Below, in pieces: positions 5,701 to 9,140 of a stretch of 64,000 bases of DNA. Numbering within the stretch: the stretch's first letter is position 1; every line of letters begins with the position of its first letter. Position numbers and translations under genes: made by a program. Origin of the DNA: Longimicrobiales bacterium (lineage in GTDB: Bacteria; Gemmatimonadota; Gemmatimonadetes; Longimicrobiales; Gaopeijiaceae); assembly GCA_965198065.1 (NCBI GenBank), contig CBDAON010000004.1, positions 2,432,001-2,496,000 on the forward strand, in the 5' to 3' direction. A model generated the notes under the pieces. It was not told the origin of the DNA. It saw only the letters and a list, made by a program, of their open reading frames with translations, and did not search any database.

Positions 5701-6204
5701 CCAACTACGTGCGGTCCTGAGGTGATCTACCCCCCTAAAACGAGACCGAGTCCAGTTTTAGAATCTGGACGGGGTCAAGACACGAAAGGGGAGGGCACAA
5801 TGGCCGCACCAAAGAGGCTGAGTCCGGCACAGATCATCAACCGGCTACGCAAGGCAGAGGTGGCCCTGGCGAACGGCAATACGACCAAAGAGGTGTGGCG
5901 AGACCTGGGGGTGAGCGAGCAAACGTACTACCGATGGCGGCGGGAGTACGGGGGAATGAAGCTGAGCCAGGCGAAGCGTCTCAAGGAGCTCGAGGGAAGG
6001 AGAACCAACAGCTGAAGCGGGTGGTGGCAGAGCTGACGCTGGACAAGCTGATCTTGAAGGAAGCCTCCGAGGGAAACTTCTAAGCCCCGAGCGGCGCAGA
6101 CGCTGCGTGGTGCAAGTACGCCAGCGGCTTGGGGTGAGTGAGCGCAAGGCGTGCCGGGTGTTGGGCCGGTAATTGTATACTTGCCGCACAGGCGGGGGAG
6201 GGCA

Positions 6205-6378
6205 TTATATTTCTTTCATGGATGACGCATCGTTAGTCTTGGGCTTCTTTTCGAGGGTCGCGTCGATGGTTCTCATTACCTGCTTCCCGAATACCTTCTC
6301 CATGATCTCGCGGCCCGTTTTCTCGCCGATATCTCGGGGCACCGTACGCCGCCGCTTCTTCTTGGGAGTGTGAGTCAT
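6205..6378 (-). CDS. Small basic protein in IS1595 (MTHTPKKKRRR..., 57 aa)
   Basis: Protein-like ORF whose ATG shares the CATG at 6376-6379 with the transposase start. Confidence 0.5.
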   Translation of the reverse strand: MTHTPKKKRRRTVPRDIGEKTGREIMEKVFGKQVMRTIDATLEKKPKTNDASSMKEI

Positions 6379-7264
6379 GAGCAGCGTCAACCTCCTGACG
6401 TTAATGGATCGATACAACAACGATGCGAAGTGCCGTGACGCACTGGAGCGCATCCGCTGGCCGTCCGGGGTAGCCTGCCTACGGTGCGGTGACATGGACG
6501 TAGGAGAGATCGAGAGCCGGAACCAGTTTTGCTGCCGTTCATGCGACTATCGGTTCAGCGTGACGTCCGGCACGATCATGCACCGGTCTCACCTGCCGCT
6601 CCGAACGTGGTTCTTGACCATCTACCTCATGTGCGAGAGCAAGAAGGGGATGAGCGCCAACCAGCTCAAGCGCACATTGGGCGTCACCTACAAGACGGCA
6701 TGGTACCTGTGCCACCGCATCCGTGAGGCCATGGGCAACGATCCGTTCACCGGTCCCACCCTGGTCGGAGTCGTCGAGGTGGACGAGACCGTGGTCGGCG
6801 GCAAGCGCACGGGCGAGAACTGGCGCGACAACAAGCACTGGGTGGCCGGAGCCATCGAACGCGGGGGCCGCGTCCGCATCGAGCGTATCCCGAACATCAG
6901 GAAGAACACGCTCCATGCCTTCATCCGTCGTGCCGTGAAAGACGAGGCCGAGGCGATCTACACCGACGACCTCAAGTCCTACATCGGCATCGGCGACCAC
7001 GACACCCGCCACGAGACGGTCAACCACTCCGCCGAGGAATGGGTGATCGGTGACGTGCACACCAACAGCATCGAGGGCGTCTGGAGCCTGTTCAAGCGCT
7101 CTATCGTCGGCACCTTCCACAAGATGAGCGTCAAGCATATGGACCGCTACCTCGAAGAGCTGGAATGGAGGTTCAACAACAGGCACAACCCCTATGTATT
7201 CCCCGACACTCTCCGCCGCATCATGCACACCGATCCCCTGGAGTACCGCACCCTGGTAGCCTGA
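6377..7264 (+). CDS. IS1595-family transposase
   Basis: Zn ribbon (CLRCG...CRSC), HTH, VEVDET, IYTDD, HTNSIEGVW, YLEELEWRFN. Confidence 0.95.
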   Translation: MSSVNLLTLMDRYNNDAKCRDALERIRWPSGVACLRCGDMDVGEIESRNQFCCRSCDYRFSVTSGTIMHRSHLPLRTWFLTIYLMCESKKGMSANQLKRTLGVTYKTAWYLCHRIREAMGNDPFTGPTLVGVVEVDETVVGGKRTGENWRDNKHWVAGAIERGGRVRIERIPNIRKNTLHAFIRRAVKDEAEAIYTDDLKSYIGIGDHDTRHETVNHSAEEWVIGDVHTNSIEGVWSLFKRSIVGTFHKMSVKHMDRYLEELEWRFNNRHNPYVFPDTLRRIMHTDPLEYRTLVA

Positions 7265-7270
7265 ACCTAC

Positions 7271-7299
7271 TTGCGTTGTGCTCCAACGCGCTATACCCT
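7271..7299 (+). promoter_or_regulatory. Putative sigma70 promoter for IS1595 cargo RNA/gene
   Basis: TTGCGT-17 nt-TACCCT directly before the structured segment. Confidence 0.5.
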
Positions 7300-7300
7300 T

Positions 7301-7457
7301 CCCGCACGGCACAATCATGCAGGTATCCGAGTCGGGTTACCTGCTGAATACAACAGCCGGATGATCGGTCGGGAATAGCTACCCCGGCCCCGGCGAATAG
7401 GCGGGACCTCTCCGCATTGTCTGCGTGATTGTGCCAATGGCCCGGCGCCATTGCGGG
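7301..7457 (+). ncRNA. Putative structured RNA or 5' leader of unknown class
   Basis: Nested complementarity: 7301-06/7452-57, 7308-22/7421-35 (15 bp), 7356-60/7390-94, 7367-73/7383-89, 7401-04/7412-15, 7436-41/7447-52; alternative hairpin 7319-25/7338-44. Confidence 0.55.
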
Positions 7458-7492
7458 TGCCGGATTCGCCCCCACCAATTTTAGGAAAGGCC

Positions 7493-7756
7493 ATGCCAGA
7501 GCCACGTCTCCGGAACGTCGATTCCGAGAATCACCTGGAGCAACTTGTCGAGGACTTCATAACGCAGGGTTACGATGTGCTTAACCGTGGCGAGAATAGC
7601 ACACTTGTACGAAAGAAGACCTACGGCTCCGGAGCGACTCATCTCGTGGTCTTTCTTCTCACGGTGTGGTGGACGTTTGGCATCGGCAACCTGCTCTATG
7701 CCATCATCGCTCATAGTCGAGCTGAAAAGGTTCTGGTTCGCATTCGCGAATTATAA
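7493..7756 (+). CDS. Small membrane protein (87 aa), IS1595 passenger
   Basis: SD AGGAAAGG; soluble N-half (EDFITQGYDV) then hydrophobic hairpin (HLVVFLLTVWWTFGIGNLLYAII). Confidence 0.8.
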   Translation: MPEPRLRNVDSENHLEQLVEDFITQGYDVLNRGENSTLVRKKTYGSGATHLVVFLLTVWWTFGIGNLLYAIIAHSRAEKVLVRIREL

Positions 7757-7786
7757 GCCCCTAGACTAGGATCCTTCGCCAGCCCG

Positions 7787-8242
7787 TCACAGGTCTCCCC
7801 TGTGCCGGATCAGAAGTTTGCCCATGTTTGATTCCAACCAGACCCGAAGCCGCTCCCTGTTGTAGGTGCCCTCACTGAGCATAGCTCCGGGGCTACTCTC
7901 AAACTTCTTTAAGATCTCGAAGCGAACGCTCATCTTGACCGCTGGTTTCATGCCGATGGTGGCGTGTTGTAGATAATTGTCAATAATCGCACCGGCAGTA
8001 ATGTAGTCCGCTGTGCCGTCCGGCTTAGGATGTTTCCGTGACCTTTGAAGTCTTCCCCAAGTAAACAACAAGACGCCCAGCAGGACCGCAAAAGGCGCAA
8101 ATTCGGTGTAGAGGTTCATTGGCTCGAGCCACGCTGCCCACGCGCCTCCATCGTCGATGAGGCCAGGGATGCCCCAAATCCCGAAGACGATACCGATCCA
8201 TTCCCATGGCCCGCGTGGCCGCCAACTCGCCTTTCGCCGCAT
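7787..8242 (-). CDS. Hypothetical membrane protein, IS1595 passenger
   Basis: 151-aa ORF, two N-terminal hydrophobic segments, lower GC, preceded by a promoter in the IR. Confidence 0.65.
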   Translation of the reverse strand: MRRKASWRPRGPWEWIGIVFGIWGIPGLIDDGGAWAAWLEPMNLYTEFAPFAVLLGVLLFTWGRLQRSRKHPKPDGTADYITAGAIIDNYLQHATIGMKPAVKMSVRFEILKKFESSPGAMLSEGTYNRERLRVWLESNMGKLLIRHRGDL

Positions 8243-8248
8243 CCAGGC

Positions 8249-8277
8249 ACTTTAACCGCATCCATGCTGTGCGTCAA
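8249..8277 (-). promoter_or_regulatory. Inward promoter with -35 inside the right IR of IS1595
   Basis: TTGACG-17 nt-TAAAGT, 6 nt before the ATG at 8242 (leaderless-type spacing). Confidence 0.6.
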
Positions 8278-9140
8278 GTATACAATTACCGTTGGGCCAG
8301 GCACGCTCGACGCAGCGTCGGATACCGAAGCGAAGCGAAGATGAGGAGGTGCTGAGAGAGGACGTGGTGAAGGTGGCTCGCAGGTTCGGGCGCTGCGGGT
8401 ACCGGATGGTGACGGGGATGCTGAGGACGGAGGGCTGGGCCGTGAACCACAAGCGGGTGGAGCGGATCTGGAGACAGGAGGGGCTCAAGGTGCCAAGTAA
8501 GCAGCCGAAACGAGGGAAGGCTGTGGCTGACCGACGGTTCTTGTATCCGACTGCGGCCCCTGTACCGACACCATGTATGGGCGTATGACTTCGTGGCGGA
8601 CCGGACGCATGATGGACGGCCGCTCAAGATGCTGACGGTGCTGGATGAGTACAGCCGGGAGTGCCTGGCGATCGTGGTGACTCGCAGGCTTCAGGCGGAC
8701 GATGTTCTGCAGACGCTGAGCGAGCTGTTTGCCGAGCACGGTCCACCGGCGAATCTTCGCTCCGACAACGGTCCGGAGTTCACGGCCCGAGTGGTTCGGC
8801 AGTGGCTCGGTGAGCTAGGCGTGAAGACGCTGTTCATCGAGCCGGGCAGCCCGTGGGAGAACGGCTACAATGAGAGCTTTAACGGCACGCTCCGAAACGA
8901 GCTGCTGAAGCGCGAAATCTTCCATTCGCTGGAGGAGGCGAAGGTGCTGATCGAGCAGTGGCGGCGCGAATACAACACGCATCGACCGCACAGCTCTCTG
9001 GGTTATCGACCCCCGGCCCCCGAAGCGATCCGGCCAGACCCAAAGCTGCTCAACCTACCTCTGCTTCTTGGACCACCCCCCAGCCAAAAGGAGGTGCTTG
9101 GACTAACACTCTAGGTGGTACCGCTTTTGGGGGCAGGTCA

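Follow-up and report, generated by a model that had tools for sequence, protein, structure and literature searches.

Introduction

The title of Chen 2011 reportedly presents sRNA-Xcc1, the RNA of Rfam family RF02221, as trans-acting. The available text of one article describes its mapping by RACE as a discrete 88-nt RNA (PMC2996969), and that of another reads it as trans-acting and lists one copy beside isrK and C4 in its Table 4 (PMC12189769). Excerpts of two preprints place it before symE in cassettes of Xanthomonas (bioRxiv 2025.06.18.660453) and upstream of an ORF6N gene (bioRxiv 2020.03.17.996009). In their available portions, neither these four sources nor PMC2864571, PMC11701678 and PMC8201110 call sRNA-Xcc1 C4-like or RNase P-processed. 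As far as these portions of the literature extend, sRNA-Xcc1 is treated as a trans-acting virulence sRNA and not as a self-addressed cassette; the Weinberg motif supplements could hold wider c4-type alignments.

C4 and CI, two phage RNAs, are hairpin-like substrates of RNase P that are recognised via their 3' ends and unstructured leaders, according to the accessible part of PMC5499578. CI acts through pairing with seqA upstream and seqC downstream, as described in the accessible part of PMC4825925.

Here we analyse a structured RNA aboard an IS1595-family insertion sequence in a 64,000-nucleotide stretch of a Longimicrobiales genome (the window). Literature searches found no such RNA on IS1595 among the entries they listed. 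From sequence comparison, we favor, with a probability of about 0.55, the reading that it is an enlarged cassette of the C4/sRNA-Xcc1 type, likely processed by RNase P, which would gate translation of variable, mostly exported cargo.

Results

An IS1595 element carries the RNA and its passenger genes

The element is 2123 bp long (6168-8290, +) and carries the RNA together with passenger genes. Its terminal inverted repeats (TIRs) have 25-nt arms that are 96% complementary, and an 8-bp target site duplication (TSD), read directly, flanks it at 6160-6167 and 8291-8298. The empty site is present in four of four public contig sets or runs from two studies, where the join skips 2131 nt with 8 ambiguous letters. 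The transposase (6377-7264, +; 295 aa) matches Pfam PF12762 (E 1.6e-35) and PF12760; with a DDE_Tnp_IS1595 transposase, TIRs and an 8-bp TSD, the element has the defining traits of IS1595. It sits within what appears to be another element (5800-6159 and 8299-9114), which we take, from its protein sequence, to belong to the IS3 family.

IS1595 elements with passengers are presumably those called "transporter IS". The window element shares with them TIRs, an 8-bp TSD, a zinc-ribbon plus DDE transposase and passenger ORFs, but differs in that its passenger is accompanied by a conserved RNA control module. This module is common to unrelated IS1595 subgroups, whose transposases are 30-34% identical, and occurs in either orientation. 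A second passenger ORF from the ORF list (7787-8242, −; 151 aa) converges with the RNA-led transcript, and a Pfam scan of it returned no family above the cut-off. At the right IS end, a promoter-like site (8277-8249, −) is directed inward toward this ORF. A basic 57-aa ORF (6205-6378, −) is divergent from the transposase start, and similar small ORFs are found near the ends of other IS1595 elements in the same genome.

The gene downstream of the RNA has a ribosome-binding site (RBS) at 7483-7490 and encodes an 87-aa DUF8108-like membrane protein (7493-7756, +); it lies on the same strand as the RNA and does not overlap it. All eight database homologues of this protein bear PF26438, named DUF8108_N, in precomputed annotation, and its top Atlas cluster is likewise DUF8108_N (0.95). 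The protein model (pLDDT 88), comprising a helix, two strands and a helical hairpin, had no match in the PDB at E<=0.001, and a literature search for "DUF8108" found no paper. When we inspected 30 loci bearing homologues of the 87-aa protein, the RNA was present at only one, L017 in a Thermoanaerobaculia genome, where an IS1595 transposase also adjoins. The idea that the RNA is dedicated to this protein, raised in an earlier reading made from the sequence only, is not supported, given this count and the many unrelated genes that follow the RNA elsewhere. The same 1/30 sets the RNA apart from the antitoxin RNAs of type I toxin-antitoxin systems, which are tied to one toxin family and are usually antisense.

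The window copy has a conserved promoter position and competing helices

A predicted sigma70-type promoter (7271-7299, +) consists of TTGCGT (7271-7276), a 17-nt spacer and TACCCT (7294-7299). A consensus promoter scan of the window did not call it. Among 68 homologues of the RNA (described below), TANNNT begins 10-14 nt ahead of the long stem, P1, 38 times, and TTG[A/C] is found 33-38 nt ahead of it 32 times. Because the hexamers stand at fixed distances before P1, we regard the promoter position as conserved and predict a start at about 7306-7308. The promoter noted in the sequence-only reading thus holds in both sequence and spacing, though the simple scan missed it, and the start it placed at 7301 is replaced by the one predicted here.

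The segment 7301-7457 folds better than its shuffles (z -4.59; 0/200 as good), in line with the strong structure first proposed for it; for 7295-7495 the z is -2.69, and -2.21 on the minus strand. At the 5' end, the leader strand P1a (7308-7323, +) pairs with 7420-7435 and is the putative upstream antisense target, similar to seqA or a1b1. Of the long stem as first described, the 15 bp at 7308-7322/7421-7435, with one G-U, are found; the proposed extension to 18 bp is not, as the minimum free energy (MFE) fold gives 16 bp with a second G-U. P1 is crossed by an 8-bp acceptor-like helix. Its 5' strand (7331-7338, +) begins with G7331, the predicted RNase P cut (+1), and its 3' strand (7439-7446) is followed by GCCA (7447-7450), the two together spanning 7439-7450 (+). 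In the family alignment 95% of the cells of this helix are paired, and it aligns with the outer stem of RF02221.

Enclosed by the acceptor-like helix, alignment and pair counts define a conserved arm (7340-7405, +). The arm comprises P3 (7340-7345/7400-7405), an internal loop of GAAUA-CAACA (7346-7355) opposite GAAUA (7395-7399) that matches AAUACAA...GAAUA of RF02221, P4 (7356-7360/7390-7394), and an apical stem (7367-7373/7383-7389) whose loop contains the palindrome UAGCUA. A variable 3' segment (7406-7437, +) follows; it includes P1b (7420-7435), which the family tests below mark as the predicted antisense strand, and when P1a is left out (fold of 7331-7450) it forms a weak hairpin of its own. 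The crossing helix, the free GCCA and P3 are additions to the earlier description. The inner arm described there is found at 7356-7394, and its competing hairpin (7319-7325/7338-7344) is better than shuffled in 50 of 68 homologues. The proposed closing stem CCCGCA/TGCGGG, which lies partly upstream of the predicted start, does so in only 28 of 67 and is not conserved. An alternative hairpin (7442-7463, +; -17.1 kcal/mol) takes up the 3' strand of the acceptor helix together with most of GCCA. In a local test such a hairpin outperforms shuffled sequence in 53 of 67 homologues, although a wide-window test is weak (38/68). By this fold model, in the window copy it would block processing by capturing the acceptor strand.

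The RNA belongs to a family with a private long helix and an invariant loop

A motif search, whose pattern included the 5' strand of the acceptor helix, had matches in 18 of 401 genomes from the phylum (none for a reversed control pattern) and in 95 metagenome stretches. These gave 99 distinct matches, of which 14 without the first G were discarded as chance, leaving 85. Twelve truncated, degenerate or mis-parsed matches were then left out of the P1 duplex test (n = 73), and eight were left out of the later set, leaving 77, or 68 at <85% identity. The homologues are related, so p-values derived from them are overstated. Of 121 genomes of the family, 12 gave hits to a covariance model built from 54 of these sequences. 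The exact long-form motif was absent from the viral contigs searched, and blastn of plasmids and phages gave no match.

Four parts are conserved: P1, the crossing 8-bp helix, the P3/P4 arm with its invariant loop, and the apical arm, which is missing from short variants. P1 joins the very start of the transcript to a segment some 100 nt further on through 16-24 bp (median 19 bp), with a sequence private to each copy. The duplex between a copy's own strands has z<-2 in 68 of 73 homologues, and own pairs stand at -31.9 kcal/mol against -16.9 for crossed pairs. Although P1a is not in the covariance model, z is <=-2 in all 17 later model hits (four duplicates excluded; one hit closely resembles a training sequence). 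The sequence-only reading had proposed a covariation check on homologues, and its outcome is positive: in a pairing alignment of 50 sequences, 16 of 27 pairs show changes at both positions, and 90.8% of cells pair compared to 81.9% in shuffled and 35-51% in slid controls. The acceptor-like helix varies little, with 5 of its 9 pairs constant throughout, and the P3a type covaries weakly with the 3' end of P1a. P1 appears in the precursor MFE of 57 of 67 homologues. As side observations, the terminal G-C of the acceptor-like helix is A-U in L301, and L302 has the apical hairpin twice.

The apical loop is of interest for its symmetry. Among 54 aligned sequences its 4-mer is AGCU in 30, GAUC in two, GGCC in one and AAUU in one, all self-complementary; single changes that break the palindrome give CGCU in four, UGCU in two and AACU in one, and the 4-mer is absent from eight sequences and unalignable in five. 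That multi-change variants of this loop (7374-7382) keep the palindrome hints at loop-loop dimerisation, with few independent cases.

The internal loop GAAUA-CAACA/GAAUA is unpaired and invariant in the 50 aligned sequences. Invariant unpaired nucleotides, together with mutually exclusive helices, are what one would expect of a riboswitch or protein-binding leader, in which this loop and a pseudoknot form a pocket that selects either the crossing helix or, in its place, the downstream hairpin or an anti-Shine-Dalgarno (anti-SD) pairing. The downstream genes fit this idea in that signal-peptide-like starts are enriched among them; a crude rule scores 31 of 59 products as apparently exported, compared to 44 of 419. 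They do not fit it in sharing no common pathway: a Pfam scan of 54 left 38 without a hit, and the others are unrelated. The identical loop also occurs in phage RF02221 members, and no riboswitch family was hit. A private P1 code and an NCCA end are not known as riboswitch features. We consider a ligand-sensing riboswitch a weaker reading than the C4-type cassette, and a sensing leader of either kind rather improbable.

The family is often found on insertion sequences and upstream of genes

The source genome has four copies of the RNA, three of them within intact IS1595 elements: that of the window and two others, which have perfect terminal repeats of 24 and 30 bp. The fourth has no flanking repeats and adjoins an apparent IS end. 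Across the family, an IS1595 transposase is present in 11 of 68 loci, in 9 of the 40 with full flanks and in 9 of 17 later model hits. This frequent association, and the fact that both strands fold, would be expected if the hairpins served transposition or recombination as DNA, or if the fold were a chance product of GC-rich sequence. Several features speak for an RNA instead: the many G-U pairs, promoter spacing on one strand and the placement before a Shine-Dalgarno (SD) sequence and ORF. Moreover, the position and orientation of the RNA relative to the IS ends vary, and most IS1595 copies of the source genome are without it. We regard a DNA-level element or chance fold as very improbable.

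An ATG with an SD and an ORF begins within 65 nt downstream of the RNA in 37 of 63 homologues, compared to 14 of 400 random sites; in the window the cargo gene with its RBS begins about 44 nt downstream. Overall, the homologues and the mutually exclusive helices support the first description of a conserved, structured, switch-like RNA carried as IS1595 cargo with its own promoter.

Some individual loci are worth recording. L071 (G000:C4:2710785-2713144) is an IS1595 element with a copy of the RNA and a frameshifted transposase; it further includes a tRNA-Gly(tcc)-like gene along with another tRNA-like piece. In L059, L066 (G000:C4:149028-150110 and 1733346-1734431, respectively) and L060, the RNA, long in one and short in the others, precedes lipoprotein-like collagen-repeat plus trypsin-like proteins. 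The unrelated loci L120 and L146 have a further hairpin-rich stretch in common just downstream of the RNA, perhaps a second module.

The core is homologous to sRNA-Xcc1

Rfam scans of the window region gave chance hits only, with RF02221, RF01695, RF03163 and the riboswitch families unmatched, and the window copy did not hit RF02221 at E<=10 (gathering cut-off, 53 bits). The best RF02221 score among the genome's copies is 23.3 bits. Elsewhere, scores of 31-43 bits, again below the cut-off, were reached by 7 of 15 loci, each of them a short or loop-variant form. When these RNAs are aligned with RF02221, its outer stem corresponds to the acceptor-like helix and its first arm to the P3 arm. The reverse comparison used a family model built without RF02221 members that exceed the cut-off. 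In 20 phage loci with 21 motif sites it recovered 20 of the sites, 16 of them at E<=0.05 and the best at 3e-6. Nineteen of these loci contain RF02221 above cut-off, and four control loci selected by pattern only gave no hits. The RF02221 closing stem and first arm, with its AAUACAA/GAAUA internal loop, are present in the family. The second hairpin with its 6-7-nt joiner appears in the MFE of 7331-7450 (segment -7.0 compared to -4.9 shuffled); this segment shows no sequence conservation and is the partner of P1a in the precursor. On these comparisons of sequence and structure, we consider the core of the RNA homologous to sRNA-Xcc1. Layouts of 6S RNA, hammerhead and other ribozymes, the c-di-AMP and yybP riboswitches and RNase P RNA were absent from the alignment, and none of these gave an Rfam score.

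The two forms share the closing stem G-Y-C-G-G-G ... C-C-C-G-R-C followed by NCC, the AAUACAAYA/GAAUA loop, a variable 3' segment before the closing stem, and placement upstream of ORFs on mobile DNA. They differ in size, as the family RNA is about 115-130 nt rather than 87 and has an extra apical arm with a GGG-UAGCU-CCC hairpin, and in cargo, which here consists mostly of exported proteins on IS1595. They also differ in their upstream partner, which here is a contiguous 16-24-bp helix 4-8 nt before G+1, whereas phage RF02221 members have a bipartite site 75-140 nt away. The novelty claimed for the RNA is therefore partial: its core belongs with RF02221, but its form is built differently and scores below that family's cut-off. 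The Rfam check that had been suggested likewise gave no real hit for the window copy, only sub-threshold RF02221 scores for short homologues.

The likeness to C4 (RF01695; targets RF03163) that the sequence-only reading saw in the inner arm pointed in the right direction but from the wrong part of the molecule, the resemblance residing in the ends and the 3' antisense segment. What the RNA has in common with C4 and CI is the ends AU|G...C-N-CC and, in its predicted fold, a closing stem whose 3' side is preceded by a hairpin and a short joiner. A complementary site upstream is a further likeness to the two-site arrangement of CI (available part of PMC4825925), and family-wide a downstream site may be another. 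Unlike C4, it has a closing stem of 8-9 bp (about 17 in C4) and a first arm with the GAAUA-CAACA loop. Unlike both, it is not accompanied by an antirepressor or icd gene or by an intrinsic terminator, and it resides on insertion sequences rather than in prophage immunity regions. Control of a phage antirepressor or replication operon does not describe its cargo, which is DUF8108-like here and elsewhere unrelated and mostly unannotated. In the viral contigs L171 and L209, a single leader holds c4-a1b1, isrK and C4, with the RF02221 member placed downstream of them.

Homology to sRNA-Xcc1 raises another possibility, that of a free sRNA acting in trans on host mRNAs, or an antitoxin for the 87-aa protein, that is merely carried by the IS. 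The available portions of PMC12189769, which describes sRNA-Xcc1 as trans-acting, and of bioRxiv 2025.06.18.660453, which places it upstream of symE in Xanthomonas cassettes, are consistent with this, as is the small membrane protein encoded here. Nevertheless, almost every copy has a variable segment that complements its own leader, the RNA accompanies the protein at a single homologue locus of 30 and otherwise precedes many unrelated genes, and it does not overlap the cargo ORF in antisense. We judge a free sRNA or antitoxin to be quite unlikely.

The ends resemble those of RNase P substrates

RNase P prefers substrates with A at -2 and U at -1. Neither this leader nor the NCC(A) end was used in the search pattern, yet NCC follows the acceptor-like helix in 55 of 68 homologues and NCCA in 37 of 68 (background 8.4% and 1.7%), and the helix is preceded by U at -1 in 45 and by A at -2 in 36 of the 68. 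The phage RF02221 class, among the matches listed, has NCC in 76 of 87 and the AU leader in 67 of 87, and the Rfam C4 consensus shows the same ends and the same hairpin plus joiner before its closing stem. The family thus has the acceptor-like stem, single-stranded leader and 3' NCC(A) that characterise C4 and CI. Folded alone, 7331-7450 forms a closed three-way junction with a free GCCA, at a z of -0.83 that is no better than shuffles. In 61 of 68 mature forms, the MFE fold shows the acceptor helix with a free 4-nt tail; the helix and P3 occur together in only 25-27 of 68. The source genome encodes rnpB.

The variable segment is complementary to the leader and, in part of the family, may pair with the ribosome-binding region

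A C4- or CI-like RNA should have a complementary target upstream in its own transcript, and P1a provides such a target in 68 of 73 homologues and in 17 of 17 later hits. In phage RF02221 members, among the matches listed, the corresponding site is 75-140 nt away and pairs better with its own RNA than with those of others in 60 of 65, and pairing to the SD region is found in 82 of 93. In the family, P1b pairs with its own downstream region better than with others' in 51 of 67 homologues and 14 of 17 later hits, but strongly (z<-2) in only 16 of 67. In the computed folds, opening the SD costs 8.2 kcal/mol with P1a in place and 10.3 kcal/mol once P1a is taken away (a rise in 40/51), and with P1b shuffled the cost is 8.3. 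A candidate anti-SD role for the 16 nt after P3 failed (33/66).

The window copy behaves differently. Pairing of its P1b with the start region is no better than chance (z +1.6; -14.5 compared to -16.5 shuffled), and its SD opens at 6.0 compared to 6.8 with P1b shuffled. RBS-site pairing thus shows as a signal at family level but not in the window copy. Because this downstream pairing is no better than chance, the target may have degenerated here and the switch may be weak or lost. An intrinsic terminator was not found after the RNA (a T5 run follows in 2 of 67), which differs from termination control in P4.

Much of this could also be produced by a cis-only conformational leader, whose long 5' helix protects the transcript and occupies the anti-SD strand, with the crossing helix and downstream hairpin as kinetic alternatives set during transcription, and with no processed trans RNA. 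P1 in most precursor folds (57/67), the acceptor-capturing local hairpin (53/67), the early competing hairpin (50/68) and the constant position 5' of a same-strand ORF (37/63 compared to 14/400) all agree with such a leader. It nonetheless leaves unexplained why a conserved NCC(A) and an AU leader stand at the two ends of one helix, and why the RNA is homologous to one that the available text of PMC2996969 describes as discrete and 88 nt long. We consider a leader of this kind unlikely. The C4/CI-type cassette is our preferred reading because the phage members have both target sites, P1a corresponds to the upstream site, and the predicted closing of the SD depends on P1b.

Discussion

Under the C4-type cassette reading, the RNA would form the 5' end of the predicted IS1595 cargo transcript, from which RNase P would excise an antisense RNA of about 120 nt. 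In a cell without the small RNA, P1a would capture P1b in cis, leaving the RBS region open and the cargo made. The helix 7331-7338/7439-7446 with its GCCA would mimic the acceptor end of a tRNA, and RNase P would cut at G7331. As the released RNA accumulates, it would bind in trans to P1a on newly made transcripts, or else to the start region itself. With P1a so occupied, P1b would be free to cover the RBS region and the cargo would be shut off; the private pairing code of each element would ensure that its own cargo alone is silenced. Processing, trans action and repression are all predicted steps. Against this reading, the 19-bp cis helix may outcompete a trans partner.

If this is right, sRNA-Xcc1, a family in Rfam with the annotation of a virulence-linked trans sRNA, gains a mechanism that can be tested, as the phage copies (93 among the matches listed) have the two-target layout and the C4/CI ends. 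It would also extend a control logic from prophage immunity to the cargo of insertion sequences, in a larger form that Rfam misses and that stands before many exported proteins. A bolder proposal, which we consider rather unlikely, is that insertion sequences took over phage-type RNA immunity, with private, RNase P-matured RNAs silencing each element's own exported-protein gene after a burst on arrival, and with apical loops dimerising by kissing. If true, this takeover and kissing-loop reading would make sRNA-Xcc1 a second class of RNAs of the C4 type. The cassette reading itself, if right, would add a new class of natural RNase P substrates as well as an RNA switch that is compact, addressed by sequence and served by a host enzyme.
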